Positions 26,131-51,156 of a stretch of DNA of 64,000 nt are shown here, piece by piece. The stretch is taken from contig JBFLYH010000002.1 of NCBI GenBank assembly GCA_040756875.1, positions 981,246 to 1,045,245 of the forward strand, written 5' to 3'. This stretch comes from a candidate division FCPU426 bacterium. GTDB lineage: Bacteria > Oederibacteriota > JAAXVQ01 > JAUVAV01. A program made the position numbers and the translations under genes. The notes below the pieces were generated by a model. It had not been told where the DNA came from. It did no database searches and saw nothing but the letters and a program-made list of their open reading frames with translations. The stretch's first letter is position 1. The number at the start of each line of letters is the position of its first letter.

Positions 26131-27456
26131 GTGCCTGAATCTTTCTCCGCCAGACAATTAATCGGTTGCGCCCTGGCTATCGGGCTGCTGCTTACAGGCT
26201 GCCGCGGCGCCACCCAGGCCCCGGCCTGGTCCCAGCGCTCCCTGATCGCCGGCCCTGAAATCCTCGTCCGTCTCTGGCGCAAAACCCCCTTCACGCAAGT
26301 GCAGCTCTCCTGGGACGGCACGCCGCTGCTGGCGGTGGATGCCAACGGAGAAATCATCCCCCTGCCGCAGGTCAACCGGCTCTATTTCTACCAGCGCGGC
26401 GAGCAGGTGGCCCTGGCATTCAAAGCCGGCCGCAAGGCGGCCCGCGAAGCCCAGGCGTACTCCTCGCTGGTGCTGCGGGTCCCGGGATCCGAGGTCAAGG
26501 CGTTCACGGTGTTGATCCCGGAATACGGCCGGCGGCGCAACTACGGCGCCCAAGCCGTGAGCCTGTCCGTGAAATACGGGCACTTGGCGCTGATCAACCA
26601 TCTGCCGCTGGAAATGTACCTGGCGCGCGTGCTGCCCGAGGAAATGGATCCGGAGCATTTCACGCTGGAGGCGCTCAAAGCCCAGGCCGTGGTGGCGCGC
26701 ACCTGGTCCCTGACCAATCTCAACCGGCACGCCCGCTATGGGTATCATTTTTGCGACGGGCCCCACTGCCAGGCCTACCGCGGCCGCAAGCGGGTGTCCG
26801 GCCGGGCCGAGGACGCGGTGAAGATGACCCTGGGCGAAGTGGTGCTCTCCGGCGGCGAGCCGGCCGAGGCGTTTTACCACAGCACCTGCGGGGGCAACAC
26901 GGCGTTCGTGGAAGACGTATGGCCCGGGGCCCGGCTTCCGTATCTGAGGCGCGTCGAGGACCGCTTCCGCCCCGGTCAGCGCGCCTACTGCGCCCATTCC
27001 CCCTATTCACGCTGGACGCTGTGGACTTCGCTCCGGCACGTGGAGCGGGTATTGAAACGCCGCCAGGCGATCGCCGCCGAAACCAATCTGCTGGACGTCA
27101 AAGTGGACGCGGTCAACCGTTCCGGCCGCGTGCTCAGGATTTGGCTGGCCACAGACCGCGGCGAATTGACACTGGGCGGGGAGTCCTTTCGCGCGTGGCT
27201 GAACGAGGAGTTCGGGCGAAAGCTCCTGAGCACGTTTTATTCCATCAGGGTGGAGGACGGGCAGTTTAAGCTGGAGGGGAAAGGCCTGGGACACGGGGTC
27301 GGCATGTGCCAATGGGGCGCCCGGGGCATGGCCCAGCTCGGTTTTTCCTACCAGGACATCCTACAGCATTACTTTCCGGGGACCACGATCGGCCGGTTCG
27401 AGGGGGCGGCCGTGGAACCCGGGGCGACCACGGTGAATTCGCACGCCGGGAAGTAG
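26131..27456 (+). CDS. SpoIID/LytB-domain protein (putative peptidoglycan-acting lipoprotein)
   Basis: GTG start at 26131; lipobox LLTGC; SpoIID/LytB blocks HSTCGGNTAFVEDVW and GHGVGMCQWGARGMA. Confidence 0.7.
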   Translation: MPESFSARQLIGCALAIGLLLTGCRGATQAPAWSQRSLIAGPEILVRLWRKTPFTQVQLSWDGTPLLAVDANGEIIPLPQVNRLYFYQRGEQVALAFKAGRKAAREAQAYSSLVLRVPGSEVKAFTVLIPEYGRRRNYGAQAVSLSVKYGHLALINHLPLEMYLARVLPEEMDPEHFTLEALKAQAVVARTWSLTNLNRHARYGYHFCDGPHCQAYRGRKRVSGRAEDAVKMTLGEVVLSGGEPAEAFYHSTCGGNTAFVEDVWPGARLPYLRRVEDRFRPGQRAYCAHSPYSRWTLWTSLRHVERVLKRRQAIAAETNLLDVKVDAVNRSGRVLRIWLATDRGELTLGGESFRAWLNEEFGRKLLSTFYSIRVEDGQFKLEGKGLGHGVGMCQWGARGMAQLGFSYQDILQHYFPGTTIGRFEGAAVEPGATTVNSHAGK

Positions 27457-29621
27457 CGGGGCGTGCGGGTTACCTGCAGGGGCGAACGCGAACGGCGGGC
27501 CGATCCCATGGGCGCCACTTTCAGGTTCACCTGATACCGGCCGGCCGGAAGGCCCGGCGGCACTGCCAGCTGATAAATTTCCTCCAGATTGCCGGGCGCG
27601 TAGGCCCACGAGGGCGGGGGCCAGTAACCCAGGCGCCGGACCGCTTTCCAGGGCCGGCGCAGGGTTCCGGAAACGGACGGCTGGATCCAAAAATACACCA
27701 CCCATTGTTCGCCGTTGGGCGCGGGCAGAAATTGCCAGCGCAAGGAAACAGTCAGCACGGAATCCAAACCCTCCGAAGCGGCCGGCGGCTGCACGCCGGC
27801 TGCCACCAGGCGCATGGGTCCTGCCGTCTCCAGCGGAGACGGGGTTTTGGCCGGGCCCAGGCCTGATTCGCCCCAGACCGGGCCGCGGGCCACGGGAAAC
27901 GGTTCAACGTGATAGGCTGAAAACCGCCGGTTGGTTCCGTCCGGGCCGTTCACTAAATAGCCTCCATCCTCCATTGCCAATAATCTGAAGCTTTGCAGAA
28001 AGTATTCCCAAGCCGGAGAGGACAGTTTGGGCCTGGCCAAGACCACCACCGGTTTTCCCGCCGACACCTGTTGGCCGAGTTCCCGGTTCCAGGCGGCCCA
28101 TTTGCGCCAGGCCTTGCCTTTTTCCGCAGCGCGGGCGCCGGCGGCAGCCGGCCAGGGTTTGGACAGAGGTTGCAGCAGCAAATCCGGACGCACGCCTTTG
28201 CGGGTTTGCAGCAACAAAGGCAGCAGCCCCTGCTGCATGTCCGGAAAAACCACGATGGCGGATTCGGGCAGGCTTTTCATCCCGCGGCCGACTTCGTCCA
28301 CGTCGGAAATCCGGGGGCCGGATGCCGCTTCCGGCCATCCCTGCAGCAACATCAGCACCGGGGCCAGGGCCACCAGGCTCATGCCGATCCAGGTGGGCTT
28401 GAGACGCATGCCCAGGCTCAAGCGGTGGTCGCCCTGCCCCAGCACGGTCAGGACATACTGCAGGGCTTCCAAACCCAGCCAGGGGCCGGCCATGGCCAGC
28501 CCCAGCATCACGTCCTCGCTTTGCCGCAGGGGCAGCAGCAGCAAACCCGCCAGGGAACAGACGATCAGAAGCGCCAGGAACTGGCGTCCCGGCAGGTTGA
28601 TTTCCTCGGTTACGCGCAGCGGGGTTTTGAGAAACAACCGGCGCAGGTTGGCGGCCAGCCCCAGGCCGGCCAAGGCCCAGGAAAAAACGGGAAAATGCCG
28701 CAGCCAGACGGACCAGACCGTCGACCAAGGTCCCTGCGGGGCAGCAGGGGGGGACCCGTGCGACTGGAGCTGGGTCAGGAAGCCCTGCCAGGCGTGAAGG
28801 TTCAGGGCCGGGCCGAGCGGCTGGAAATGATCCGTGTTGATGAAGACGTGATCCGCAGTCAAGCGCAGGGGCAGGTACAGATAGGGCAGCAAGGCGCCAA
28901 CCAGGGCCGCGGCCACGGCCTGGCCGTACATCCAGGCCTGCACGCGTTGGCGGGGGAGCCCCAGCACCAACCCCAGGAGCAGGGCCGAGGCTGCCCAAGG
29001 AAGCAAGCCCAGGGATTGGGAAGCCGTGGCGCCCAATAAAGCGGCCCAGGCCGTGAGGCGCCAGACGGACACCGGGTGACGGCCGGGCGTGAGCAGACCC
29101 AGCGTTAAGTACACGCCAACAGCCAACAGCCAAAGGTGGAAGGACATCGGGCCGATGCGCAAGCCGGCCTGCCAGACCGGAAAAAACCAAAAACAGGACA
29201 AAGCCGTGGCCAGGGAGACGAAGGGCGGAAACAACAGGCGGCGCGCGATCAAATAAACGAACAGGCAGGTTCCGGAGCCGAACAGCAGGCTGAGCAGGCG
29301 GTACCGCCACAGCTCTTCGCCCAAGGGCAGCACGACGGACAGGAACTTGGCGCTGAGCAGATACAACGGATAGCCCGGAAAACGGACCACGCCCAGCGTG
29401 CTCGCGCCCAGCACCCATTCGGCCTGGCCGCCGGCCCACGAGCTTGTGGCCAGCCAGGGCCAGGAAGTCAGCAAGGGCAGGAAAAAAGCCAGCAGGCCGA
29501 ACCAGCCGTCGGGTTTAAGGAAGAAAATCGTCTGATCCACCCGTTCCGGGCGAGAGGGTGCGTACACGAGCAGCAAGCCTCCGCGGAGCCTGAGCCGGTG
29601 ACGGCGTACGCTCCAGAGCAT
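27369..29621 (-). CDS. DUF2723-like polytopic membrane protein (GT-C-fold glycosyltransferase-like)
   Basis: Only supported minus-strand gene; 750 aa, N-terminal half strongly hydrophobic with LGVVRFPGYPL motif; start uncertain (alternative GTG at 29567 with GGAGG SD). Confidence 0.6.
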   Translation of the reverse strand: MLWSVRRHRLRLRGGLLLVYAPSRPERVDQTIFFLKPDGWFGLLAFFLPLLTSWPWLATSSWAGGQAEWVLGASTLGVVRFPGYPLYLLSAKFLSVVLPLGEELWRYRLLSLLFGSGTCLFVYLIARRLLFPPFVSLATALSCFWFFPVWQAGLRIGPMSFHLWLLAVGVYLTLGLLTPGRHPVSVWRLTAWAALLGATASQSLGLLPWAASALLLGLVLGLPRQRVQAWMYGQAVAAALVGALLPYLYLPLRLTADHVFINTDHFQPLGPALNLHAWQGFLTQLQSHGSPPAAPQGPWSTVWSVWLRHFPVFSWALAGLGLAANLRRLFLKTPLRVTEEINLPGRQFLALLIVCSLAGLLLLPLRQSEDVMLGLAMAGPWLGLEALQYVLTVLGQGDHRLSLGMRLKPTWIGMSLVALAPVLMLLQGWPEAASGPRISDVDEVGRGMKSLPESAIVVFPDMQQGLLPLLLQTRKGVRPDLLLQPLSKPWPAAAGARAAEKGKAWRKWAAWNRELGQQVSAGKPVVVLARPKLSSPAWEYFLQSFRLLAMEDGGYLVNGPDGTNRRFSAYHVEPFPVARGPVWGESGLGPAKTPSPLETAGPMRLVAAGVQPPAASEGLDSVLTVSLRWQFLPAPNGEQWVVYFWIQPSVSGTLRRPWKAVRRLGYWPPPSWAYAPGNLEEIYQLAVPPGLPAGRYQVNLKVAPMGSARRSRSPLQVTRTPRYFPACEFTVVAPGSTAAPSNRPIVVPGK

Positions 29622-32618: not shown

Positions 32619-32702
32619 TCGCTGTGTATTGCCCCGGTGAGGAGCTCTCCGGGGTGACGTTGCCGGAACGACAAATTGAGTGAATATCGAAGGAGGCTCG
32701 GC

Positions 32703-35704: not shown

Positions 35705-35715
35705 GAGGGATGAAC

Positions 35716-36828: not shown

Positions 36829-36876
36829 GGCGCGCCCGGGCATCGTGGTCATCCCCGAGGGATGAGGAGGGACGGC

Positions 36877-37923
36877 ATGGCAACAGCAAGCGACAAACGG
36901 AAGCCGAAAAAGACAGCGGCCCAGGGAAGCAAAGCGGCCACCCGGGCCAGACAGGCCAAAAGCCAGGCGGCGATTCCCGCCCCGGTTGCGGCCTCCGCGC
37001 CCGCGGCGCCGCCCCGGGCTGCCAAACCGGGCTTGCCGCACGGAATCATTCTGGGCGTTTTGCTGGCCCTGGTGGTTTTGGTCAGCGTGGAGGTCGTGAT
37101 CCTCATGAAGGACAAGGCGGACCGGAAGCGCATTCTGCGCGTGGTGGAAGTGGTGCCGGAACGCGGCGGGCCGCCGGACATGCCGGGCAAGTTCTGGGGG
37201 CCGTACCAGGTCAAGGTCAACGAACAGGCGGGCCGCTTGGCCCTGGTCGACCACGCGTTCAACAAGGTCGTGCTGTGGGACCTGGCCACCAAGAAGCACG
37301 TGGTCGACGTCAACGCCGCCTTGCTGGGACGGGAGCAGTTCGTTCCAAAGGACGTCGATGTGGCCGATGACGGCGACTATTACATCCTCGACCACTCTGA
37401 CATGACGGTCAAACGGTTCTCGGCCCAGAACCAGCTGGTCCAGCAGTGGAAGATTCCGGAGAGCGTCAGCCTGACGGCCGGCAAGGACCGCGATGTGTAC
37501 GTGCTGGACGGCAGGGCCCAGGAGATCGTCCATTATCAAAACGACGGCACCGAACTCGGGCGTTTCGGCAAGGGTAAGTTGAAAAACGGCCTGTTGATGG
37601 ACACGGATGAGGCCGGCAACATCTACGTGGTGGATTCCGGCTACAACGGCATGGTGGTTTTCTCGAAGGCGGGCAAGCACCTGTATTCCTGGCCGATCAA
37701 GGAAGTGAAGCCCTTGCAGATGTCGCGCATGGCGGCGGTCAACAACCAAGTGTATTTCTACGACCTGGTCAACAACAACGGGATCATCAGAGTGTACACC
37801 CCCAAAGGCCGCCTGGCGTGGGATATCGGCCCGCAGCGCACAGAATCATTTGACGTCGGCCGCTCGGGGACGGTGTACATGTCCGGCAACGACGGCATCG
37901 TCATTCAGCAAATCGAGAAGTGA
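36877..37923 (+). CDS. membrane-anchored beta-propeller-like protein (divergent NHL-like paralog)
   Basis: Start at ATG 36877 (RBS GAGGAGGGA); N-terminal basic region and TM; repeated YVLD/YVVD blocks. Confidence 0.5.
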   Translation: MATASDKRKPKKTAAQGSKAATRARQAKSQAAIPAPVAASAPAAPPRAAKPGLPHGIILGVLLALVVLVSVEVVILMKDKADRKRILRVVEVVPERGGPPDMPGKFWGPYQVKVNEQAGRLALVDHAFNKVVLWDLATKKHVVDVNAALLGREQFVPKDVDVADDGDYYILDHSDMTVKRFSAQNQLVQQWKIPESVSLTAGKDRDVYVLDGRAQEIVHYQNDGTELGRFGKGKLKNGLLMDTDEAGNIYVVDSGYNGMVVFSKAGKHLYSWPIKEVKPLQMSRMAAVNNQVYFYDLVNNNGIIRVYTPKGRLAWDIGPQRTESFDVGRSGTVYMSGNDGIVIQQIEK

Positions 37924-37937
37924 GGCCCAGGTAGCCA

Positions 37938-40900
37938 GTGGCGGATAAAATCAAAGCGGCCTTCGAGGCCTTGAAAAAAAGCGGAATCAATGTTTCTTTG
38001 CGGTTCGTGTGGCTGGCGCTGGCCGTCGGGCTGATTGGCCTGGGCCAGGTCAATTTCTTCTCGCGCAATCTGGCCGCGGGCATGGGTCTGACCCTGCTGG
38101 GCGCCGTCGTGCTCCTGCTGGCGGCGGGCGAGAGCGGCAAACAGGCCGCCCTCCTGCAGCGGGCGGGGAAGTGGTTTGGCCGGGCGGCTGAGCGCTTTTC
38201 CGCGTTCGCCCGCGCGCGCCAAAAGGCCGAGGATCTCGCCACCGGAACCGCCGGCCAGCCGGCCGCCAAGACGAATTGGAAACCGCTGAAAACCCAGTTC
38301 GAGGAAACCCGGCGCTCCTGGCTGGCCTTTGCCGAGGAAACCACGTTCACGGCGCCGAAGAACCTGGTCATGATCCTCGGCATTCTCTTGATTCTGGCCG
38401 GCCAGCCCTTCCTCGTCGCCGAGAAGTTCGTCCTGGCCCTGATCCTCATCATTCCCGGCTTGTACCTGCTGGTCAACGTCATTTTCGCCCCCCAGGAACG
38501 GTACGTCATCGGCCGGCTCGACCACATCATCCGGACCGTTTTATTCCTGATTCCGGGCGTGGGCTTGATCATCCTGGGATGCATGATTCATTTCCAGGCG
38601 GTCAGCCTGAGCCTCCCCCGCGAAGCCCTGGGCTTGGGGCTGAACGCGCTCGGCATTTTCATCATCTTCTCCCTGTTTCCGAGGATCATCCCCGATTCGT
38701 TCCCTGAGTCAGGCGATCCGGTGGATCAGGTGACCGGCCGGGCCGCGAACCGGACGCAGGTATTCATGAAAATCGGACTGGTGGCCCTGGCCCTGGTGTT
38801 TTTCCTGGCTTCCAAGCATTATGCCAACCCGGCTACCCTGAACCTTTCCGCGCTGATGGCCCTTCTGTTTCTCACGGCGATGAGCCTGTCTTTTCCCTGG
38901 AGCGCCGAACCTCGCGACCAAACCAGCGGCGAAAACATCGTCCTGAAATGGCTGGTGAAATACCTGCGCCTGGCGGCTTTCGGCCTGGGCCTGTATTGGG
39001 CCTACCGCGGGCAGGTGCTGATCTCGCACGAACAGCTTTATCCGGGGCTGTACCGGTTCCTGGCCGCGGCCATCGCCATGTGGATCGCCCTGCGCGAACC
39101 GGACCCCAAGTACGTGGATGAATTGAAGGAAAAGCCCCTGGCCTGGTACTGGGAGGCGCTGGCCCTGGTGGCCATCCTGTCGGCCGCCACCTGGGTCCGT
39201 GTCCATCTCCTGAAGGACATACCTTACGGGATCGAGTGCGACGAGGCGGGCGCCGGCGCGCACGCCGTCGATGTTTTGCAGAACCACTTCAGTTCGCTGA
39301 CGATCCATCCCAGCGGACGCCCGCTGTTCATGCTGCTGGACAAAGTGGTCACCATCCGCTTCTTCGGCATCGACAACATCGGGATGAAGCTGGGCGCAGC
39401 CATCTGGGGGACCGCGGGCGTTTTCTGCGTTTATCTCATGACCCGGTTTTTGTTCGGCACGCGCGCGGCCCTGGCCACGGCAGCCCTGATGGCCTGCTCG
39501 CGCTGGCACATCCATTTTTCGCGCTACGGCTGGGCGAACACCCTGATGCTGGTGCTCCAGATCACGGGATTCTATTTCATCGCCAAGGGCATCCAGACGC
39601 GGAACAAATGGTTCTTTTTTCTCGCGGGCGTGGGCCTGACCCTGTCCATCCACACCGAGACCGCGGCGCGCATGGTGCCCTTCATGTGCCTGGGCCTGCT
39701 GGTGTACTTCGTCCTGTTTTACAAGCGGTTTTTCCGGCGCAATTGGCAGACCCTGCTGGTGTTCCTGCTCGGGGTGTGGCTGGCCGGCGCCAGCCTGTTC
39801 CTGTTTTGGGTGAAGCAGCCGCGCTACCTGTTCAACCGCGTGTACGAAGTGTCGGTGTTTTCCGGCGACGCCAACGCGCCTCGGAACCTGGTCAAGGGGC
39901 TGGTCGAAAGCACCAAGCTCAGCCTCACGCAGATGAACTGGCACGGGGACACCCGGACCCGCCACAACGGCGGCCTTTCGGGCGAGCCGGTGCTCGATTT
40001 CTGGTCGGCCATCCTCTTCGCCCTGGGGTTCGGCTTTTCGCTGTATTACTGGAGGCGGTTCCGATACACCATACTGCTAATGTGGTTTTTCGGGTCCATG
40101 GCCGCCTCGATCTTCGCCCTGGAGGCGCCGCAATCCCACCGGGCCTTTGGCGCGCTTCCGCCGATTTTCATGCTGATGGGCGCGTTCATCGACCGCTCCC
40201 GCAGGCTGCTGCGGGAGACGCTGGGCAAGCCCGGCACCCTGGCCGGCGGCCTGGTGCTCCTGCTGCTCCTGGTTCCCATCGCCAAGATCAATTACAAAAA
40301 ATACTTCGACGCGTATCCGGGGTTCGACACGGCCTGCACGGCCGCGGCCAAGTACATGGGGCGCGTCTGGCCGAAGGCGGAGCAGGTCATCATGTCCGCT
40401 TATTTGTGGATCGGCCATCCGCCCTTCGAGCTGTACGCCCGCGGGATATCCGGCCACTTTTACTTTGCGGCCTCCGAAGCGGTTCCGTTCCGCCAGCAGA
40501 CCGACCGGGATGTGAATTACACCCTGATCCTGGAATATCCGGAGATCATGCCGACCATCCAATGGTACTATCCGGAAGGCGAATATTCCGAGGAGACGCA
40601 CGTCCGCTACGGGCTGCAGTACCGCGGCTGGGGCGTGAAACACGAGATCATCCAAAAATACCGCGGCCTGAACGCTTCGTACTGGTCGAATCCCTATTGG
40701 GCCGGGGAGCCGAAACTGCGGCGCAAGGACGCGGATTTGAACCTGACCTTCGACCAGACCACCTGGCCCTGGAACGGCCCGGGGTCGGTGAAATGGGAAG
40801 GGACCGTGTTCATCCCCCGCGAAGGGAAGTACGTTTTCTACCTGTACGGCACCAATGAGGTCGAAGTCAAGGTCGGCTCCCAGGTGCACCTCCGCGCCGG

Positions 40901-41537
40901 CAACAAGCAGGAACAAACCTACGAAACGTATATGGCCGGCGGCTTGCACCGGCTGGACGCCCGGGCGGTTCACAGCGCCCCGGGCGAAAGGATCCTGTTC
41001 GCCTGGAGCTGCAGCCAGGATGTGCCGTACTACCTCTATGACGAAGCGCACCAGAACCGGTTTGCCAAGGAGCCTGTCCCGAACACGCACCTGTTCACCT
41101 ACCCCGAACCCAAAGGGCTCCTGGCCACTTTTTATTACAAACCGGACTGGACCGGCGGGATCGCCCGGCAAGTGGTGGAACCCGCCCTGTTCTACTTGTG
41201 GATGGGGCCGCCGTACGGCCTTAACATGCCCTTCTCAGCGGATTGGAAAGGCTGGATCGACATCGAAAAACCCGGCACGTACCAGTTCGGCGTGGACTGC
41301 AGCGGGTACTCGGATGTCACGATCGACGGCATCCCGGTCGTCGTCCAGGGCGAGCCGCCTTTTTCCGGCGTTCCCCGCCTGCAGGGCCGCAATTCAGTCC
41401 AGCTGGCGGCCGGGCGCCATCCGGTGACTGTCCGCTGGTCGCAGCAGTACGGGCTGTTGTTCAGGTTCTGGTGGGTTCCGCCCGGCCAAAAGAAGGAAAT
41501 CGTTCCCGTTTGGGTTCTGACGCCTCAGGACAAGTAA
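37938..41537 (+). CDS. large GT-C-like membrane protein with two C-terminal PA14-like domains
   Basis: 1199 aa; polytopic N-terminal two-thirds with acidic loop motif GIECDEAG; C-terminal PA14-like beta-sandwich patterns. Confidence 0.55.
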   Translation: MADKIKAAFEALKKSGINVSLRFVWLALAVGLIGLGQVNFFSRNLAAGMGLTLLGAVVLLLAAGESGKQAALLQRAGKWFGRAAERFSAFARARQKAEDLATGTAGQPAAKTNWKPLKTQFEETRRSWLAFAEETTFTAPKNLVMILGILLILAGQPFLVAEKFVLALILIIPGLYLLVNVIFAPQERYVIGRLDHIIRTVLFLIPGVGLIILGCMIHFQAVSLSLPREALGLGLNALGIFIIFSLFPRIIPDSFPESGDPVDQVTGRAANRTQVFMKIGLVALALVFFLASKHYANPATLNLSALMALLFLTAMSLSFPWSAEPRDQTSGENIVLKWLVKYLRLAAFGLGLYWAYRGQVLISHEQLYPGLYRFLAAAIAMWIALREPDPKYVDELKEKPLAWYWEALALVAILSAATWVRVHLLKDIPYGIECDEAGAGAHAVDVLQNHFSSLTIHPSGRPLFMLLDKVVTIRFFGIDNIGMKLGAAIWGTAGVFCVYLMTRFLFGTRAALATAALMACSRWHIHFSRYGWANTLMLVLQITGFYFIAKGIQTRNKWFFFLAGVGLTLSIHTETAARMVPFMCLGLLVYFVLFYKRFFRRNWQTLLVFLLGVWLAGASLFLFWVKQPRYLFNRVYEVSVFSGDANAPRNLVKGLVESTKLSLTQMNWHGDTRTRHNGGLSGEPVLDFWSAILFALGFGFSLYYWRRFRYTILLMWFFGSMAASIFALEAPQSHRAFGALPPIFMLMGAFIDRSRRLLRETLGKPGTLAGGLVLLLLLVPIAKINYKKYFDAYPGFDTACTAAAKYMGRVWPKAEQVIMSAYLWIGHPPFELYARGISGHFYFAASEAVPFRQQTDRDVNYTLILEYPEIMPTIQWYYPEGEYSEETHVRYGLQYRGWGVKHEIIQKYRGLNASYWSNPYWAGEPKLRRKDADLNLTFDQTTWPWNGPGSVKWEGTVFIPREGKYVFYLYGTNEVEVKVGSQVHLRAGNKQEQTYETYMAGGLHRLDARAVHSAPGERILFAWSCSQDVPYYLYDEAHQNRFAKEPVPNTHLFTYPEPKGLLATFYYKPDWTGGIARQVVEPALFYLWMGPPYGLNMPFSADWKGWIDIEKPGTYQFGVDCSGYSDVTIDGIPVVVQGEPPFSGVPRLQGRNSVQLAAGRHPVTVRWSQQYGLLFRFWWVPPGQKKEIVPVWVLTPQDK

Positions 41538-41539
41538 GC

Positions 41540-42817
41540 ATGGCCGCGGAACGGAAGGAAGGCTTGGTCGGCGTCTCCCTGCTGCTGTTCCTGCTGACCA
41601 TGGGGAACAGCGTCTGCGGCTTTGCGCTCCACGCCGTGGCCAGCCGCGTGCTGGGCCCGGAGGACTATGGCGCCTTCGTAAGCCTGCTGGCCCTGCTGAT
41701 GATCCTGGCCGTGCCCAGCCAGGCGGTGCAAATGATCGTCGCCAAACAGATCACGCTCGAGTTGATCCAGAACCAGCTGCGCCGCGCCGTCGTCCTGACC
41801 TGGCAGGCGGTGCGCTGGTCGGCGGCCGCCGGAATGCTGTTGTGGCTGGCCGTGACGCTCGCCCTGCCGGTCCTGAAATCCTTCCTGCACCTGCCTTCCG
41901 CGTCCCCCCTCCTGGCGGTCGGCGCCGCGATCGTCCTGACGCTGATCACCCCGGTGCTGCGCGGTTTTCTGCAAGGCACTCAGCGTTTCCAGGCTTTGGG
42001 CTGGAACTTCTTTTTAGAGGGCGTGGGGCGTCTGGCCTGGGGCGCACTGTTTCTGCTGGTGGGGTGGGGCGTCCTGGGCGCGGTCCTGGCCAGCGCCGCC
42101 GGCGCCTTGACGGCCGCGCTGATCGCCGTCTGGCTGCTGGGCGCCGCAGCCAAGGGCCTGGACCGGAACGGCCCGGAGCAGCCGGCCGCCCGGACGTCGC
42201 TGGGGCTGCAGGATTACGGCTGGCTGGTGCTGGTCACCATGGCCGCGTTTTTCGCCCTGTCCAACCTGGACGTGCTGATCGTCAAACACCTCTTTCCGCA
42301 GGCCGACGCCGGATATTATTCGGCCGGTTCTCTGATCGGCAAGGCGTTTCTGTTCCTGCCCTACACCTTTGCCCAGGTCCTGTTTCCGAAAGCCAGCCGC
42401 CACCATGCCCTGGGCGAGAGCACCCTCTCCCTGTTGAACCGCAGCCTGCTGTACACGGCCGCGGCCCTGCTGCTGGGGATGATTGCGGTCTACGCGCTGG
42501 CGCCGGTCCTGCTGTCGGTGCTGTTCGGGCCGGAATACAACAATCCCACCACCCTGCGCATGATCCGCTATTTCGGCGCGGCCATGACGCCGCTGGCCCT
42601 GGTATACGTGATGATGCAGTACAGCCTGGCGCTTAAAAACGCCGAGTTGTCCCTGCTGATGCTGGCGGATCTTCCGGTCTTCATTATCCTGCTCATGACT
42701 CTGCCCCGCAGCCTGGAAGGCGTACTCCTGGCCATGGGCTTGAATTTCCTGATCCTGGCGGCGGCCGGCTACGCGGCCATCCGGGCCAAGGCGCAGCCCC
42801 TGGCCGCGAAAGCCTAG
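41540..42817 (+). CDS. polysaccharide/oligosaccharide flippase-like membrane protein (Wzx/MOP-like)
   Basis: ATG 41540, 3 nt after the previous stop; 425 aa, ~12 predicted TM helices. Confidence 0.5.
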   Translation: MAAERKEGLVGVSLLLFLLTMGNSVCGFALHAVASRVLGPEDYGAFVSLLALLMILAVPSQAVQMIVAKQITLELIQNQLRRAVVLTWQAVRWSAAAGMLLWLAVTLALPVLKSFLHLPSASPLLAVGAAIVLTLITPVLRGFLQGTQRFQALGWNFFLEGVGRLAWGALFLLVGWGVLGAVLASAAGALTAALIAVWLLGAAAKGLDRNGPEQPAARTSLGLQDYGWLVLVTMAAFFALSNLDVLIVKHLFPQADAGYYSAGSLIGKAFLFLPYTFAQVLFPKASRHHALGESTLSLLNRSLLYTAAALLLGMIAVYALAPVLLSVLFGPEYNNPTTLRMIRYFGAAMTPLALVYVMMQYSLALKNAELSLLMLADLPVFIILLMTLPRSLEGVLLAMGLNFLILAAAGYAAIRAKAQPLAAKA

Positions 42818-45654: not shown

Positions 45655-46623
45655 ATGCCTTCCCAGCCCCGCTCCGGAACGGCCAAACCCCGCTTGGTGG
45701 TGGTGGCGCCGTTCTACAATGAGCAGGAAGTGCTTCCCGAAACCGCCAAGCGTCTGACGGCGGTGCTTGACCAGTTGAAGCGGAAGGGGCGGATATCGCC
45801 CCAGAGCCACCTGCTGTTCGTGGACGACGGCAGCGAGGACGGCACCTGGAACCGGCTGAAAGAGCTGAAGAAGCGCCAGCCGTCCCTGGCCGCGCTGCGC
45901 CTATCGCGGAACTGCGGGCATCAGAACGCCTTGATGGCCGGATTGATGGCCGCGCGCACGCAAGCGGACTGCGTCATTTCCATCGACGGGGACCTGCAGC
46001 AGGACGAAAACGCGATCCCGGCGTTCGTGGAGAAGTACCGCGAGGGCTATGACCTCGTGTACGGCGTGCGCAAGAACCGGAGCACGGACTCGTTTTTCAA
46101 ACGGGCGACCGCGGAGATATTCTACCGGTTCATGCACATGCTGGGCGTGCGGGTGATCCGCAACCACGCGGATTACCGGCTGGCCAGCCGGCGGGCGCTC
46201 GACGCCCTGGCCGAGCACGGCGAGACCATGCTGTTCCTGCGGGGGATTTTCACCACCCTGGGGTTTAAAAGCACGGTCGTCTACCACGACGTGCGCGAAC
46301 GGTACGCCGGCGCCTCGAAGTACTCGGTGCGCAAAATGATGTCCTTCGCGCTGAACGGCATCACCTCGTTCACGTTCAGCCCCATCCGCTTCGTGAGTTT
46401 TCTGGGGCTGGGAGTGGTCGCGGCCAGCATCGTGGTGGGCATCCTGACCTGGCTGCTGACCAAGCCCGGCCAGGTCATTGATTTTAAAATCATCCTGTTT
46501 TTCGCGATCTACTTCCTGGGCGGCGTGCAGCTGGTCTGCCTGGGCGTGATCGGCGAATACGTGGGCAAGGTGTACGTGGAAGTGAAGAAGCGCCCCAAAT
46601 ACATCGTCGCCGAGGAGTTCTGA
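45655..46623 (+). CDS. polyprenyl-phosphate glycosyltransferase (GT2; DPM1/GtrB/ArnC-like)
   Basis: VVVAPFYNE...FVDDGSEDGT...IDGDLQQD motifs plus two C-terminal TM helices. Confidence 0.75.
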   Translation: MPSQPRSGTAKPRLVVVAPFYNEQEVLPETAKRLTAVLDQLKRKGRISPQSHLLFVDDGSEDGTWNRLKELKKRQPSLAALRLSRNCGHQNALMAGLMAARTQADCVISIDGDLQQDENAIPAFVEKYREGYDLVYGVRKNRSTDSFFKRATAEIFYRFMHMLGVRVIRNHADYRLASRRALDALAEHGETMLFLRGIFTTLGFKSTVVYHDVRERYAGASKYSVRKMMSFALNGITSFTFSPIRFVSFLGLGVVAASIVVGILTWLLTKPGQVIDFKIILFFAIYFLGGVQLVCLGVIGEYVGKVYVEVKKRPKYIVAEEF

Positions 46624-46626
46624 TCC

Positions 46627-47265
46627 GTGCGTCCCATGGAGCGGTTGTACCTGGACCGGCTTTTCCGCCGGGTGGAGGGCTTGCTGGCGGCCGGCGGCCT
46701 GAGGCCGGGCGCCTCGGTGCTGGATATGGGCTGCGGCGTCGGCCTCGACGCGGAATATCTGCTGGAGCGCGGTTTTCAGGTCACGGGCCTGGATGTGGAG
46801 CGGCACGACGGCGACTGGAAGGCCCTGGCCGGCCGCGGCATCCGTTTTGAATGCGCTTCAGCCGAGGACCTGCCGTATCCGGACGACAGTTTCGACGCCG
46901 TGTGGATCAAGGACGCGCTGCACCACATGCAACAGCCGGAACGGGCGCTGGCCGAAGCGCGCCGCGTGGCCAAGCCGGGCGGGCCGGTCATCGTGATCGA
47001 AGCCAACCGGTACAACCCGGTTTTTTACTTCCACCTGACGCTGTTCGGCGGGCACCAGCACTTCTCGCGGCGCCGGTTCAGGCAATTGCTGGGCACGGCT
47101 GCGGGCGACTACGCCCTGGCCCGGGCCGAGAGCCGCTGCCTGCCCTGGGACGCCGCCTGGCTGCGGGCCCTGCTGGGCTGGTTCGAGGACCGGGTGGAAG
47201 GCTGTCCGCTCCTCGCGCCGTGGCTCACGTATCAGATCGCAGTAATAAAAGGCGGGGCAGCATGA
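46627..47265 (+). CDS. class I SAM-dependent methyltransferase
   Basis: GTG start (alternative ATG at 46636); SAM motif VLDMGCGVGLD. Confidence 0.65.
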   Translation: MRPMERLYLDRLFRRVEGLLAAGGLRPGASVLDMGCGVGLDAEYLLERGFQVTGLDVERHDGDWKALAGRGIRFECASAEDLPYPDDSFDAVWIKDALHHMQQPERALAEARRVAKPGGPVIVIEANRYNPVFYFHLTLFGGHQHFSRRRFRQLLGTAAGDYALARAESRCLPWDAAWLRALLGWFEDRVEGCPLLAPWLTYQIAVIKGGAA

Positions 47266-48059
47266 AACATCGATGGCTGCGCGGGCTCTACCATTGGGCC
47301 TACCAGTTTGGCTGGGACGGTTTGCGCTGGCTGCAGGCCTGGCGGGGCCTGCCGGCGTTCCTGCGCAACCGGGCGCGCTTCAAGCGCCAGTGGAAACGAA
47401 CTCCGTCTCCCTTTGCCTGGGGCAAGCTGAGGCCCTGCCCGGCCGACCGCTTTGCCGACGCCGGCCAGGCCCGCGGGCATTACTTCCACCAGGACCTGTG
47501 GGCAGCCCAGCGCCTCTTTGCCAACCAGCCGGACCAGCACGTGGACGCCGGCTCGCGCGTGGACGGCTTCGTGGCGCACGTGGCCTCGTTCCGCGAACTC
47601 GAGGTCTGGGATCTGCGGCCCCAGCCCGGGCCCCTGCCGCGCAATCTCCGTTTCCGGCGGCAGGATCTGACCCAGCGGCCCTGGCCTTTGAACGGATACT
47701 GCGGCTCGCTCTCCTGCCTGAGCGTGCTCGAACACCTGGGGCTGGGGCGCTACGGCGATGCCGTGGACCCGGAGGCTTATCTGGCCGGCTGGGAGAACCT
47801 GCACGCCGCGCTGAAACCTGGGGGGCGGCTGTATTTCTCCGTGCCCATCGGGCCGGGCCGCATCGAGTTCGACGCGCACCGCGTGTTTGATTTGAGTTAT
47901 TTGCTGCCGCTGATCGAGGAAAAATACCTCGTCGAAGCCCTGGCGTATGTGAACGACGAGGGCGATTTGGTGGAGCCGGCGGGCCGGGACCAAGGGGCGG
48001 AACGCGCCAGCTTCGGCTGCTGGTTCGGCTGCGGACTGTTTGTGTTGAAGAAAAAATAG
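47262..48059 (+). CDS. methyltransferase-fold protein, DUF268-like
   Basis: ATGA-coupled; 265 aa; family assignment from motif memory only. Confidence 0.45.
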   Translation: MKHRWLRGLYHWAYQFGWDGLRWLQAWRGLPAFLRNRARFKRQWKRTPSPFAWGKLRPCPADRFADAGQARGHYFHQDLWAAQRLFANQPDQHVDAGSRVDGFVAHVASFRELEVWDLRPQPGPLPRNLRFRRQDLTQRPWPLNGYCGSLSCLSVLEHLGLGRYGDAVDPEAYLAGWENLHAALKPGGRLYFSVPIGPGRIEFDAHRVFDLSYLLPLIEEKYLVEALAYVNDEGDLVEPAGRDQGAERASFGCWFGCGLFVLKKK

Positions 48060-48136
48060 GACTGCCAAGCTCAAGGTAGGGGCGTTCAATTGAACGCCCC
48101 TACAAAACGAAAACCCACCGAAAGGAAGAAACATCC

Positions 48137-50878
48137 ATGTCCCGCGTTTCCTGGGGCGCCCTTAGCCTGGGCGCCCTTTTCCTGATCGGCCAGGTGGTGA
48201 TACTGGCCGGAAATCCGCCGCTGGGAGGCGCTGCCAGCCTCCTGGCCGTGGCGCTCAGCCTCGGCTGGTGGCTGAAGCGTTCCGGCAAGCCCATTGCGCC
48301 CTGGGTCGCGGTGGCGGCCCTGGGCTGTGCGGCCTGGGCCCAGGCCCTGGTGAAAGCCGAGCCCAAGGACGCGCTGTGGCTGTTTATTTTGTCCGGCCTG
48401 CTGCTTTTTTTGGCCAAGCCCGCCGGGCTTGGCTGGAAAGAGGACGGCGCCGTGCCGTCCGGGCGAGCGCCCCTGGAAAAATGGGAACCCTGGTTTGTGC
48501 TGGGGTTGCTGGGGCTGGCAATAGTGACGCGCTTCGTACCGATCAACGGTTTTCCCTTTGGGTCCATCGCCGAGGAAGCCCAGCACGTGCCCGTGCTCGA
48601 GGGCGCCATGGCCAGCCAGGTTTACGTGCCGCATTTCACGCACGGCAATATGGGCACACCCACCCTGATGAGCTACCTCGGCGCGGCCGCGTCCCGCGTT
48701 TTTGGCCGGCACATCAACAGCTACCGCATGGGCGTGGAGTTGTTCAGCGTCTTTTCCATCCTGGCCTTCTATTTCACAGCCCGGCGGGCAAGTTCGCCTT
48801 TCACGGCCGCGGTCACCAGCATCCTCTATTCGGTCTCCCTCTTGCACCTCACGCTCTCGCGGCGTTTTTATCCCTACATCGTGATTTTTTTACCCGTGGT
48901 CCTGGGCTGGGGGCTGTGGCTGGAGGGGCTGGCGCGCAGGCGCTGGTACTGGTTTTTCCTGGCCGGCCTGGCCGCGGGATTCAGCCTGCACGGCTATGAA
49001 CCGGGCCGGGGTGTGTTTCTGATCTTTTTAGCCTGGGCTGCCTGGATGTGGCTGGCCCACCGCCCCCGCCGGATGGTGAAGGGACTCACCCCAGGGGACT
49101 CCCTGCAGCCGGCTTCGCCTGGCCCCGCCCTGCCCTCTGGCCGGGACTTCGCCCTGTTTTGGGTGGGGTTCCTCATAGTCGCCGGTCCGATTTTTTATCA
49201 TATGAGCGTGCATTGGGACAATTACTGGCACTATGTGGCCAGCAAGAACCCCAACCGCACGCAAACACTGGCTGCGTATGTCAAGCAGGTGTGGTCCTTG
49301 GTCGGCGTTTATGCGCACTTGTTCCAGGTTAAGAGCGACGGCAATTACACGATGTACACCACCTACCAGCCCCTGCTTGACCCAGTGACCAGCGCCCTGT
49401 TCGGGCTGAGCTTCTTTTTCGTGCTGGCCCGCGCCTGGCAGCCCATGCCTTCCTTTGTCCTGCTGTTCTTTTTCGCCGGCCTGGCGCCTGCGCTGATCGG
49501 CGGCGGGGAGGAGCATCCGACCGCCCGCCGCACCTGCCTGGCCACCCCGGCCATCTATCTCATCATAGCCTTGGGCCTGGAGCGCCTGCGGCTGCTTTTC
49601 CGTCAGGGCCTGCCGTCCTGGGGGCGCAGGATCTTGCTGGCCGCGGCTGTTTTCCTGACCGCGGGCGTGGCCGCCTATTCGCTGCATTACTACTTCTTCG
49701 TGTTCGGCGACTCGCCCGAGGCGCGGACCGGGTATTGCTGGCGCGGCTTGAAGATCGCCCAGGCCCTGGACGCCCATCCCAAGGCGTACAGCCGGCTGCA
49801 ACCCCTGTTGTATCACGAACAGATTTGGGTGCTGGCCAAGCACCCCGGACAACCCGGGCTAGTGCCCACCCAGGAGGACCTGCTGGTGCTGGCGCCTGAC
49901 CAGGACCAGCAGCTCTTTTTGGAAGGCTACATGGAGCCGACCCTGCCGTTTTGGCGCTCCCAATTTCCCAACGCGCAGGTCACCGTTTACCGGGAGAAAT
50001 ATCCGGACCGGCCCTTTTGCGAGACCTGGCCGTACTTCAAACTGGGCACGGATCCCAACAATCCGGCCACGTACTTGATCCAGATCAACATTCCCAGGCA
50101 GGACGTGGCGTTTTTCCAAATGCTGGTGGACGCCACCACCGGACAGCACCTGCCGGTCTGGAATCCCGAGTTCGGAGCCGGACTGGTTCCCGGCCAGCGC
50201 CTGCGCCTGGCCGGCGCGGTGGTCACCCATCCTGGAGCGGTTTATTCCTGGAAACTGGGCTGGCTTGGCTGGCAAATAACCGTGGACAAAAAACCCGCGG
50301 AGTGGAGCCAAGACATCCCTCTGGACCAGGGCGTGCACTATTTCGAAATTTCCGGGCCGGTTCCTGCCGGCTGCGAGGGTCCGCTGCCCCTGGTGGTGCT
50401 GGAAAACGGCCGCAATGTGCAGCGCCTGGGGAGCGTGGTGGGGTTGCCCGCCAGGCAGGGCATGCTGGCCGAATACCGCAACAGTCCCAGCCGCTGGGAC
50501 GGGCCGGCTGAGGTTACCAGCCAAAAGCTATTCGGCCAGGAGCGATTCTACAGCGTACCTCCGGGCTTTGGGCTGCCGTTGTCGGCGATTTACCGCTGCC
50601 GGCTGCAGGTGCCCGAGGACGGCGAGTATTCTTTCGAGACCAAGCATTTTTCGCGCTGCCGGCTGCTGCTCGACGGCCGCGAAGCTTTCAATAACTTCAA
50701 CAATGTACAGGCGCCCGTGATCACGCCCATGGCCCTCGCCGCCGGCAAGCCGGTTGCGCTTGAAGCCCAGTTCATCGTCGAGGGCGAAACCCTGACCATG
50801 ACTTTTCAGCTTTTTTACCGCCGTCCGGGCCAAAAACAGGCGCAATGGGTGCCCATGGAGTGGCTCCGGTTGCCTTGA
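48137..50878 (+). CDS. large GT-C-like membrane protein with C-terminal PA14-like domain
   Basis: 913 aa; polytopic; acidic loop motif SIAEEAQHV; C-terminal beta-sandwich-like region (YRCRLQVPEDGEYSFE...LLLDGREAF). Confidence 0.5.
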   Translation: MSRVSWGALSLGALFLIGQVVILAGNPPLGGAASLLAVALSLGWWLKRSGKPIAPWVAVAALGCAAWAQALVKAEPKDALWLFILSGLLLFLAKPAGLGWKEDGAVPSGRAPLEKWEPWFVLGLLGLAIVTRFVPINGFPFGSIAEEAQHVPVLEGAMASQVYVPHFTHGNMGTPTLMSYLGAAASRVFGRHINSYRMGVELFSVFSILAFYFTARRASSPFTAAVTSILYSVSLLHLTLSRRFYPYIVIFLPVVLGWGLWLEGLARRRWYWFFLAGLAAGFSLHGYEPGRGVFLIFLAWAAWMWLAHRPRRMVKGLTPGDSLQPASPGPALPSGRDFALFWVGFLIVAGPIFYHMSVHWDNYWHYVASKNPNRTQTLAAYVKQVWSLVGVYAHLFQVKSDGNYTMYTTYQPLLDPVTSALFGLSFFFVLARAWQPMPSFVLLFFFAGLAPALIGGGEEHPTARRTCLATPAIYLIIALGLERLRLLFRQGLPSWGRRILLAAAVFLTAGVAAYSLHYYFFVFGDSPEARTGYCWRGLKIAQALDAHPKAYSRLQPLLYHEQIWVLAKHPGQPGLVPTQEDLLVLAPDQDQQLFLEGYMEPTLPFWRSQFPNAQVTVYREKYPDRPFCETWPYFKLGTDPNNPATYLIQINIPRQDVAFFQMLVDATTGQHLPVWNPEFGAGLVPGQRLRLAGAVVTHPGAVYSWKLGWLGWQITVDKKPAEWSQDIPLDQGVHYFEISGPVPAGCEGPLPLVVLENGRNVQRLGSVVGLPARQGMLAEYRNSPSRWDGPAEVTSQKLFGQERFYSVPPGFGLPLSAIYRCRLQVPEDGEYSFETKHFSRCRLLLDGREAFNNFNNVQAPVITPMALAAGKPVALEAQFIVEGETLTMTFQLFYRRPGQKQAQWVPMEWLRLP

Positions 50879-51019
50879 CGATGAAAGACACCCCTCCCCA
50901 GGCATTATGGTGGGAGGGGTTAGAGGAGGAGAGTAACTGATGAAAATGGATATGCTCAAATTTAATTATGCATGGAAAATTTGGGCAACCCGGTCTAAAT
51001 AAGCAGGAAGATAATCATT

Positions 51020-51128
51020 CCCCCTCGCCCCGCGGGAGCGGGGAGAGGGTGGGGTGAGGGGTACAACTAATAAATCTGGGGATGACCCTCACCCTAGCCC
51101 TCTCCCTATTAGTAAGCAGGGAGAGGGG
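51020..51128. repeat. composite G/C palindromic element (CCCTCxCCC / GGGxGAGGG family)
   Basis: Hairpin CCCCGC-GGGA-GCGGGG; GGGAGAGGG (51040-51048) and GGGTGAGGG (51052-51060) mirrored by CCCTCACCC (51086-51094) and CCCTCTCCC (51098-51106); another GGGAGAGGGG at 51119-51128. Confidence 0.7.
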
Positions 51129-51156
51129 AAGCGTTGTCTAAGATCCGGGAGATGGC

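Follow-up and report, generated by a model that had tools for sequence, protein, structure and literature searches.

A PA14-bearing GT-C protein of the PMT_2 superfamily from candidate division FCPU426, representing a clade without the canonical aspartate of the first-loop motif

Introduction

In all three domains of life (bacteria, archaea, and eukaryotes), outer glycans are made by GT-C enzymes, for which the catalytic model depends on an acidic residue conserved where the first external loop begins. In a 64,000-nucleotide stretch of DNA from a candidate division FCPU426 bacterium (the window), the gene at 48137..50878 on the forward strand encodes a 913-aa membrane protein of this type in which the first-loop motif does not have its usual form, and the question raised by this locus is what such a protein does, and whether it acts as an enzyme or as the partner of one.

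Results

The gene and its upstream region

The open reading frame 48137..50878 (+ strand) starts with ATG, encodes exactly 913 aa, is preceded 8-12 nt upstream by a GGAAG-type ribosome-binding site, and displays the codon-position pattern of coding sequence (GC1/2/3 of 0.64/0.47/0.80). Pfam identifies PMT_2 (PF13231; 32.9 bits against a gathering cutoff of 26.1, E 8.9e-8) in the membrane part and PA14 at the C-terminus, and the identical NCBI protein is entered as 'MAG: glycosyltransferase family 39 protein [candidate division FCPU426 bacterium]', the 'family 39' of this name being due to the PMT_2 match only. The gene is real, and its product, a large, putative sugar transferase embedded in the membrane and having a well-known fold, is of an ordinary kind in this respect.

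A perfect 28-bp palindrome, corresponding to a 12-bp RNA hairpin with fully (100%) complementary arms, lies at 48076..48103 (+), 33 nt 5′ of the start codon, with a folding dG of -25.7 kcal/mol (z -4.4). At the same position the hairpin is identical in contig L003 and near-identical in contig L005, the remaining spacer being different. It is not a canonical intrinsic terminator, since no T-run follows it, and no family was matched in an Rfam search.

Domain architecture

Hydropathy and the structure model, of moderate confidence (pLDDT 72), indicate that the core is preceded at the N-terminus by some four additional membrane helices (aa 1-92, 48137..48412; helices 6-23, 27-49, 54-71, and 76-92 in the model), an extension that is variable, as many family members start only at profile position ~110. 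The GT-C core (aa 113-523, 48473..49705) contains about 11 membrane helices and two long extracytoplasmic loops (aa 138-192 and 359-415), the combination that defines the fold. It is followed by a small extracytoplasmic alpha/beta domain recognized from the secondary structure of the model (aa 534-660, 49736..50116), which has no Pfam match even at E 10, by a first beta domain also taken from the model (aa 663-770, 50123..50446), and by the PA14 domain proper (PF07691; aa 776-913, 50462..50875), which scores above its gathering threshold and has the PA14 fold in the model. All these segments are on the + strand. The preliminary description of this DNA, in which a GT-C-like polytopic protein with a beta-rich PA14-like tail was proposed, is therefore borne out by Pfam and the structure model.

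For the first beta domain, the alignment of family profiles with PA14 by hhalign (E 3.5e-5, probability 72%, 37 columns of the PA14 core) and the 279-297 columns aligned by Foldseek to the tandem-PA14 structures 6qdi/6qe7 are suggestive, and only suggestive, of a degenerate PA14-like domain, since it has no Pfam match by itself; the same negative result was obtained with the isolated fragments of the alpha/beta domain and the N-terminal extension. In the structural search with the complete model, AglB was the top match and ArnT gave the best target-normalized TM-score (0.58). Family profiles searched against the sequences of PDB chains retrieved PA14 proteins and no GT-C membrane domain, so that residues are equated with those of known active sites by motif register, not by structural superposition. 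Judged from the helix count and the loop charges, E147, R242, Y287/G290/R291, R464/R465, and the whole C-terminal region would be on the same, non-cytoplasmic side of the membrane.

The 913-aa family and the related proteins of the window

An exhaustive HMMER profile search retrieved 193 representatives at E<1e-30, about 55 of them full-length (840-990 aa), a family that had been under-reported by a word-indexed protein search (5, then 17 matches). Orthologs were found at 73-75%, 41%, and 30% identity, and a search of GTDB species genomes with a 5-sequence alignment gave one true ortholog and two PA14-only matches. Among 50 family members examined, Pfam detects PMT_2 in 47, PA14 in 20, and PMT in 7. 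The clade has so far been named only from candidate division FCPU426, its taxonomic spread resting on three named NCBI members.

The closest comparison within the window is a 1199-aa protein (37938..41537, +) with a GT-C domain, two PA14 matches by Pfam, and the canonical D-E motif (CDEAG). The two proteins share a homologous membrane core, linker, and PA14 region, the arginines R242, R291, and R465, and membership of the same conserved module; they differ in the ~400 extra N-terminal residues (~9 helices) of the 1199-aa protein, in its two Pfam-detectable PA14 stretches, and in its D-E pair, invariant in 39/39 members of its clade. BLASTP aligns the two membrane domains at E 6e-11 (22% identity over 380 aa), and hhalign aligns the two families with a probability of 98.9% (E 3.1e-17) over 771 colinear columns that extend through the periplasmic and PA14 parts. 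Homology to the protein at 37938, the absence of which would have removed the ground for calling the two paralogs, is thus clearly detectable by both methods. The term diverged paralog is appropriate if an old split is meant, and not for recent duplicates: in a neighbor-joining tree without bootstrap values the main split lies between the two proteins, which belong to separate clades that each have many members elsewhere, and orthologs of both types co-occur in contigs L001, L003, and L005.

The relationship with the Agl23-like 671-aa protein (32676/32703), also named for comparison in the preliminary description, is only indirect. No significant alignment of the 913-aa protein with it was obtained (BLASTP E 1.1, hhalign E 0.13); both match Pfam PMT_2, and the 1199-aa protein aligns with the 671-aa protein at E 4e-6.

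The first-loop motif and the conserved residues

The first-loop motif of the 913-aa protein, P140-F-G-S-I-A-E146-E147-A-Q (48554..48583, +), is in register with P-x-G-x3-D-E in BLASTP, where it is aligned to PYGIECDEAG of the 1199-aa protein, and the string GSIAEEAQHV occupies aa 142-151. The acidic loop motif SIAEEAQHV of the preliminary description was therefore correctly located, in the loop after the first core helix and in register, but only E147 of its two acidic residues is conserved. Position 147 is Glu in 51 and Asp in 1 of the 52 aligned clade members. E146 stands at the position of the canonical Asp, which is unconstrained in the clade (H21, E5, S5, V5, Q4, A4, G3, P3, Y2) and is never Asp. 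The P-x-G-x3-D-E motif is present in 97 relatives outside the clade, the 1199-aa paralog included, and the loss of Asp maps to one branch of the tree. On the sequences collected here, the 913-aa clade is a small branch, specific to uncultured bacteria, that has lost one of two acidic residues usually thought essential for catalysis. The other signature residues persist, with R242 in 48/53 and both R291 and R465 in 55/55 aligned members, and a nearly invariant Y287-x-x-G-R291 motif. As the Asp is missing clade-wide and its replacement is unconstrained, catalysis by this clade may be altered or lost.

The gene module and its conservation

Between the 1199-aa and 913-aa genes lie genes for a flippase, a GT2, a GT4, a methyltransferase, a GtrB/ArnC-type GT2, a methyltransferase, and a DUF268 methyltransferase, so that gene annotation confirms the block of flippase, glycosyltransferase, and methyltransferase genes reported to separate the two PA14 proteins. 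The flippase candidate (41243..42817, +; Polysacc_synt, PF01943, E 2.1e-14; MOP superfamily) probably has its true start near 41534, and its orthologs, of ~425-429 aa, follow the 1199-type gene in L001, L003, and L005.

The GtrB/ArnC/PgfS-type GT2 of 322 aa (45655..46623, +), two genes upstream of the 913-aa gene, matches the NCBIfam models PgfS, the closest named one, and ArnC, which describes the undecaprenyl-phosphate Ara4FN transferase (NCBIfam), over its full length (E 2.6e-71 and 3.4e-45, respectively), at scores below both equivalog cutoffs (154 vs 529 bits for ArnC). Its C-terminal pair of TM helices (246-264 and 279-297) is typical of polyprenyl-phosphate glycosyltransferases, which makes it, from its sequence features, a candidate polyprenyl-phosphate-sugar donor synthase. 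A 65% identical ortholog is in the same position in L003 and L005, and no GtrB-like gene was found in 23 kb around the 41%-identical 913 ortholog of L001. Downstream are a SAM-dependent methyltransferase of 212 aa (46627..47265, +; Methyltransf_11, E 1.3e-24), with orthologs 77-79% identical in L003/L005, and, directly upstream of the 913-aa gene, the DUF268-type methyltransferase (47259..48059, +; E 2.8e-10), the listed reading frame of which begins at 46851 and the probable start of which is at MKHRW; its orthologs in L003/L005 (265 aa, 86-87% identical) are likewise directly upstream of the 913 ortholog.

Contigs L003 and L005 repeat the series 1199-type GT-C, flippase, GT4, GT2, GtrB-like GT2, methyltransferase, DUF268, and 913-type GT-C, and a variant of the module recurs in L001. 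Only two genes of the module are better conserved than the 913 ortholog (74-75% identity; the 1199 ortholog reaches 56%), and from this conservation it can be argued that its function is under selection. The 913-type gene closes the cluster, as had been proposed, in the window, L003, and L005, but not in L001, where an aminotransferase, methyltransferases, another GT-C+PA14 gene, and sugar-nucleotide genes follow it. Four contigs extend far enough to be informative on the partner (the window, L001, L003, and L005), and each of them carries a D-E-bearing GT-C+PA14 gene. The conserved pairing and the different catalytic motifs are compatible with non-redundant roles of the 913- and 1199-type proteins, of which two transfer steps or two acceptors, as suggested in the preliminary description, would be conceivable forms.

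Discussion

Proposed function and comparison with known systems

The reading that we consider probable, with moderate confidence, is that the 913-aa protein is an extracytoplasmic transferase dependent on a polyprenyl-phosphate sugar, with the PA14 tail holding a glycan acceptor. It would be an inner-membrane PMT_2 (ArnT/PMT-like) GT-C enzyme with its active site outside the cytoplasmic membrane. A lipid-linked sugar, most likely a polyprenyl-monophosphate sugar from the 322-aa GT2 and possibly methylated by the adjacent methyltransferases, would be built on the cytoplasmic face and flipped over the membrane, the MOP-family transporter of the cluster being the candidate, and the 913-aa protein would then pass the sugar to an extracytoplasmic acceptor, the glycan of which would be gripped by the degenerate PA14-like and PA14 domains acting as a carbohydrate-binding module. 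The catalytic carboxylate would be that of Glu147, in the first external loop, and the leaving phosphate would be bound by R242, R291, and R465, which the topology model sets at the outer face. A precedent is CeDPY19, a GT-C enzyme with a Glu as general base, in which E71D retains ~80% activity and two Arg stabilize the phosphate (PMC10154233). The protein would act alongside, and non-redundantly with, the Asp-Glu-bearing 1199-aa paralog. Against a monophosphate donor, a Wzx-type MOP flippase fits a polyprenyl-diphosphate-oligosaccharide donor equally well.

Acceptor-binding carbohydrate-binding modules are known on GT-C enzymes within three-component synthase/flippase/GT-C systems, and module-bearing GT-C examples include EmbC, AftD, and the GT136 founder (PMC11127046). 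As in the GtrA/GtrB/GtrC-type systems and that of GT136 ORF12 from Citrobacter youngae (PMC11127046), the synthase, a MOP-superfamily flippase candidate, and the GT-C protein are encoded together here, the 322-aa GT2 occupying the place of the polyprenyl-phosphate-sugar synthase (conserved in L003/L005, not seen in L001), and the GT-C protein, like ORF12, has a C-terminal beta-rich module, here a putative carbohydrate-binding one. This cluster differs from them in its two large GT-C+PA14 enzymes, several methyltransferases, extra soluble glycosyltransferases, and NHL propeller proteins, in the PA14-type rather than Ig-like module, and in the Polysacc_synt/Wzx-type flippase, no GtrA-like gene having been seen. 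From ArnT (GT83, PMT_2 group), an enzyme with undecaprenyl-phosphate-Ara4N as donor and lipid A as acceptor, the 913-aa protein differs by the missing Asp of P-x-G-x3-D-E, four extra N-terminal helices, and C-terminal alpha/beta and two beta domains, including PA14, in place of the small periplasmic domain of ArnT, and it has no match in NCBIfam at E <= 0.1, the ArnT equivalog included. A further comparison is with RsgI3-type tandem PA14 dyads and with PA14 lectins (MpIBP, Lap, Flo5, Epa), of which the Flo, Epa, and MpIBP types bind sugar through a Ca2+/cis-Asp-Asp site. In the 913-aa protein, Pfam does not recognize the degenerate first copy, and the PA14 domain is carried by a membrane enzyme, not by an adhesin, toxin, or anti-sigma factor; the literature search found no paper on PA14 together with GT-C.

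Alternative readings

The same PMT_2 membership, together with the NCBI 'GT39' label and the Pfam PMT match in 7/50 family members, would also suit a protein O-glycosyltransferase with a PMT/TMTC/TMEM260-like function, which would take a sugar from a polyprenyl-phosphate donor and attach it to Ser/Thr residues of proteins that are secreted or anchored in the membrane, a reading that we regard as rather unlikely. In it, PA14 would guide the acceptor as the MIR domain does in PMTs, for which there is precedent (PMC12586580), and candidates for the acceptor would be the NHL propeller proteins of the cluster, which are membrane-anchored, or a secreted protein of 2259 aa encoded immediately downstream. 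The latter begins with a signal-peptide-like segment and has stretches richer in S/T/P around aa 1800-2000, and its giant gene is conserved downstream in L003/L005, although in L001 and L008 it does not adjoin the ortholog. Among related GT-C+PA14 proteins, P0006 and P0007 have fused NHL domains, and P0008 has NHL domains encoded next to it. PgfS, the closest named model for the neighboring GT2, is part of a protein-glycosylation system of streptococci, together with two membrane partners. Characterized PA14 domains, however, are known to bind carbohydrates and not peptides. The D-E motif, which in PMTs lies in the loop between helices 1 and 2 and the Asp of which is termed invariant and catalytic there (PMC12705809), is E-E in the 913-aa protein and x-E clade-wide (D in 0/52). 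Moreover, neither Pfam PMT (PF02366) nor MIR nor PMT_4TMC is detected at E <= 0.1, and PA14 is C-terminal, unlike the MIR beta-trefoil that GT39 PMTs (Pmt1/2/4 and bacterial PMT) have between helices 7 and 8. Given that AglB was the top structural match, an oligosaccharyltransferase or ligase was considered as well, which would transfer en bloc a polyprenyl-diphosphate-linked oligosaccharide that the GT4 and GT2 enzymes encoded in the cluster assemble and the Wzx-type transporter flips. The genes of that flippase and of the soluble GT2 and GT4 lie indeed between the two GT-C genes, but the absence of WWDxG makes this identity unlikely: W[WY]D occurs nowhere in the protein, the membrane part has no DxD (the sole one, DQD at aa 588, is in the soluble domain), STT3 is matched neither in Pfam nor in NCBIfam, and no initiating phosphoglycosyltransferase was recognized among the genes scanned (27-51 kb). 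The best normalized structural score belongs to ArnT, and by sequence the protein is PMT_2, a group whose characterized members, to our knowledge, use monophosphate donors. Taken together, we judge this reading to be highly improbable.

The clade-wide loss of the Asp bears on a different type of alternative, in which the 913-aa protein has the GT-C fold but no catalytic activity and, still binding the lipid-linked substrate and, via PA14, the glycan, assists the active 1199-aa enzyme with its D-E motif as a partner, chaperone, or regulator, much as PIG-U/GAB1 is a GT-C-fold lipid-binding subunit of the GPI transamidase. Consistent with this are the freedom of the Asp position, its retention in all 97 outgroup relatives with the loss on one branch, and the company of a D-E-bearing GT-C+PA14 gene in every contig long enough. 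For a passive scaffold, however, such near-invariance of E147, of the outer-face arginines, and of Y287-x-x-G-R291 would be more than one expects, in CeDPY19 one Glu is enough as base, and the 913-aa protein is more conserved than its supposedly active partner. We hold a non-catalytic, substrate-binding role to be quite unlikely, though a serious rival. A broader proposal, doubtful as well, is that the clade, as a monophyletic group that has dispensed with the otherwise universal Asp, has a different chemistry or role, and that the 1199- and 913-aa proteins form an obligate two-subunit machine. If this were true, the clade could employ a single-carboxylate or His/Glu-assisted, metal-independent transfer mechanism or, alternatively, the 913-aa protein could be lectin-like and non-catalytic, a GT-C protein capturing both the glycan and the lipid-linked donor on behalf of the partner with the D-E motif.

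Significance

Should the 913-aa protein be just another active transferase, the finding would amount to a routine annotation. In the 913-aa clade, with its approximately 55 cluster representatives, the fold is retained together with one Glu and the arginines of the donor side, and the Asp position is freed from constraint, so that the clade may serve as a natural experiment on which carboxylate GT-C catalysis really needs. The 913/1199 pair, both members of which carry PA14 tails, would be a compact system for asking whether labor is split by step, by acceptor, or between catalytic and non-catalytic partners, and PA14 would join the carbohydrate-binding modules recruited by GT-C enzymes. For the uncultured FCPU426 bacteria, the pair may offer a first functional handle on the cell envelope.

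Domain Organization of the 913-aa Protein

The open reading frame at 48137..50878 (+) starts with ATG and comprises exactly 913 codons, with a GGAAG-type ribosome-binding site immediately upstream and a codon-position GC pattern that matches the neighboring genes (GC3 0.80); an identical protein, from a 1.13-Mb contig, is recorded in NCBI as [quoted passage not shown], and the gene is thus confirmed as originally delimited. The protein belongs to the GT-C fold and to the Pfam PMT_2 superfamily, with PMT_2 at aa 175-303 (E 8.9e-8) and PA14 at aa 816-900 (E 1.8e-5), both over the gathering score. In an AlphaFold2 model built from a 12-sequence alignment (pLDDT 72, pTM 0.60), four N-terminal helices (aa 6-92) are followed by a core of about 11 helices (aa 113-523) with two long loops (aa 138-192 and 359-415), a small alpha/beta domain (aa 534-660), and two beta domains (aa 663-770 and 776-913). 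A 50-member family profile matched the RsgI3 PA14 domain (E 4.5e-18). Although the first beta domain searched alone against Pfam gave no match, its family profile aligns with the core strands of the PA14 profile (hhalign E 3.5e-5, probability 72%), and the tail is therefore probably a pair of one degenerate and one intact PA14 domain. Helix number and the charges of the loops are consistent with a topology that would place the first-loop motif, the conserved loops further along, and the entire C-terminal region on the non-cytoplasmic side. A bona fide GT39, GT83, or STT3 identity was rejected on the features tested.

Relationship to Other GT-C Proteins

Five GT-C-type proteins are encoded within 24 kb: the 913-aa protein, the PA14-bearing 1199-aa protein (37938..41537, +), and, upstream of the cluster, a TMEM260-like membrane protein of 750 aa (27369..29621, -), a DUF2298/Chlor_Arch_YYY protein of 801 aa with an inserted zinc ribbon (30213-32618), and a 671-aa protein with an N-terminal zinc ribbon (32676-34691), Agl23-type by NCBIfam (E 1.7e-88). 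The 913-aa and 1199-aa proteins are homologous, both by BLASTP (E 6e-11, 22% identity over 380 residues) and by profile comparison (probability 98.9%, E 3.1e-17), with 771 colinear columns reaching through the PA14 region; direct sequence and profile comparison of the 913-aa with the 671-aa protein revealed no similarity, these two being linked only by the common PMT_2 assignment and a transitive path via the 1199-aa protein. The first 400 or so residues of the 1199-aa protein (aa 1-400, window 37938-39150) form an N-terminal extension with some nine additional predicted membrane helices; this extension has no Pfam match and no counterpart in the 913-aa protein.

A word-indexed search with the 913-aa protein returned five relatives only, and an exhaustive HMMER search covering 1.84 billion representatives returned 6804 at E<1e-3 and 193 at E<1e-30, with about 55 whole-length matches of 840-990 aa. 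The three organism-named members are all from FCPU426, and a 75%-identical ortholog occurs in one GTDB species genome labeled only "uncultured bacterium". The 1199-aa protein has a separate, larger set of relatives (24-30% identity over about 800 residues), and a neighbor-joining tree, built without bootstrap from 151 sequences and 392 columns of the membrane core, puts the two proteins on either side of one split. The paralogy is accordingly old, and the "diverged paralog" of the preliminary description holds in that sense only.

The First-Loop Motif

Relatives have the motif P-x-G-x3-D-E immediately behind the first core helix; D-E occurs in 39/39 members of the 1199 clade, in 97 of the fetched relatives overall, and in the other GT-C genes at related loci. 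In the 913 clade, the spacing to the conserved Pro is unchanged and the Asp position is altered (H 21, E 5, S 5, V 5, Q 4, A 4, G 3, P 3, Y 2, D 0), whereas the Glu is retained in 51/52 members. The acidic motif SIAEEAQHV, present here as GSIAEEAQHV at aa 142-151, had thus been assigned to the correct loop, but only its second Glu is evolutionarily important. In the HMM ranking, the switch from D-E to x-E lies exactly where the family ends, and one tree bipartition contains 52/53 x-E and 0/96 D-E sequences. Other nearly invariant residues of the family are R216, A224, G277, Y287, G290, R291, and R465, together with R242 and Y163/Y180; R242, R291, and R465 are common to the 1199-aa paralog. Joining a GT-C to a carbohydrate-binding tail is not new in principle; the variant features are that the tail is of PA14 type and that the Asp has been lost throughout the clade.

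Gene Neighborhood and Flanking Sequences

Between the 1199-aa and 913-aa genes lie, in order, genes for a Polysacc_synt/MOP flippase, a GT2, a GT4, a methyltransferase, a 322-aa GT2, a methyltransferase, and a DUF268 methyltransferase. Full-length matches to PgfS (E 2.6e-71) and ArnC (E 3.4e-45) were obtained for the 322-aa GT2, which carries two membrane helices at its C-terminus. Three NHL beta-propeller proteins are encoded in succession (34748-37923) upstream of the 1199-aa gene, and all have a basic tail and one membrane anchor at the N-terminus. Since NHL repeats are fused to a GT-C+PA14 protein in two distant relatives (P0006, P0007), and a 1061-aa NHL protein adjoins such a gene in contig L009, the propellers are suggested to be functional partners of these enzymes. 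The scanned genes upstream of ~26 kb are all housekeeping (Bat operon, TCA-cycle enzymes, pyrimidine synthesis).

Two related contigs, L003 and L005, keep the order 1199-type, flippase, GT4, GT2, GtrB-like, methyltransferase, DUF268, 913-type, giant ORF, with ortholog identities of 56% (1199), 74-75% (913), and 86-87% (DUF268). In L001 (41% 913 ortholog), the module is rearranged, and its downstream continuation encodes an aminotransferase, methyltransferases, one more GT-C+PA14 protein with D-E, and sugar-nucleotide enzymes; in L008 (30% ortholog) the gene is preceded by those for a methyltransferase, an epimerase, and an MBOAT protein; because these arrangements differ, the 913-aa gene closes the cluster, as had been proposed, in this lineage only.

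A perfect 28-bp palindrome, GTAGGGGCGTTCAATTGAACGCCCCTAC, at 48076-48103, 33 nt 5' of the start codon, folds as a 12-bp RNA hairpin (dG -25.7, z -4.4), with no T-run after it and no Rfam match. It is kept in place, identical in L003 and with two near-loop changes in L005, while the remaining spacer is divergent, and could serve in regulation, in RNA stability, or as a site for protein binding. The longer spacers upstream of the orthologs in these contigs (L003 8900-9030, L005 9860-9940) share a repeated element, …gtggcaatcttggtt…gacggattgcttcgctctc…ggaatcgctcgcaatgaca…, possibly small and mobile or repetitive in nature, that is missing from the 77-bp spacer of the window. On the 3' side, the gene is followed by a 278-bp spacer (50879-51156), in which lie an AT-rich stretch and imperfect inverted repeats rich in G (51047-51060/51086-51099 and 51091-51107/51118-51134). 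The 2259-aa ORF directly downstream (51157-57936) is very A/Q/L/E-rich, with a signal-peptide-like N-terminus, a nucleophile-elbow-like AHSQG motif near the C-terminus, and no Pfam or NCBIfam match; in L003, L004, and L005 the 913 ortholog likewise has this ORF downstream, at 54% identity, whereas in L001 and L008 it does not. Within its 3' end, at ~57 kb, GC drops from ~0.63 to 0.44, reaching 0.37 at 61-64 kb, and GC3 is 0.37 in the ORF at 60992..62887 versus ~0.85 in the glycosylation cluster, which suggests a foreign or swapped module at 57000-64000 (e.g., a variable toxin-like end plus accessory genes) or an assembly join.

Proposed Function

In protein O-mannosyltransferases the D-E motif has been called invariant and catalytic (PMC12705809), whereas in the C-mannosyltransferase CeDPY19 a lone Glu acts as general base, with the phosphate held by two arginines (PMC10154233). 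That the 913-aa protein is itself a protein O-glycosyltransferase appears unlikely, and a role as a non-catalytic partner that binds substrate alongside the 1199-aa enzyme, comparable to PIG-U in the GPI transamidase, is slightly less likely still; an en-bloc oligosaccharide transferase is improbable, as WWDxG is absent from the protein.

The reading with most support, at somewhat better than even probability, is an extracytoplasmic GT-C transferase, in a layout analogous to the synthase/flippase/GT-C-with-CBM systems of Kelly et al. (PMC11127046). The computations establish the fold and domains, the homology, the synteny, and the motif statistics; with the orientation, donor, acceptor, and activity that we infer for this transferase, the 322-aa GtrB/ArnC-type enzyme would make a polyprenyl-phosphate sugar, the PA14 region would hold the acceptor surface glycan, and the 913-aa protein would add the sugar to it.
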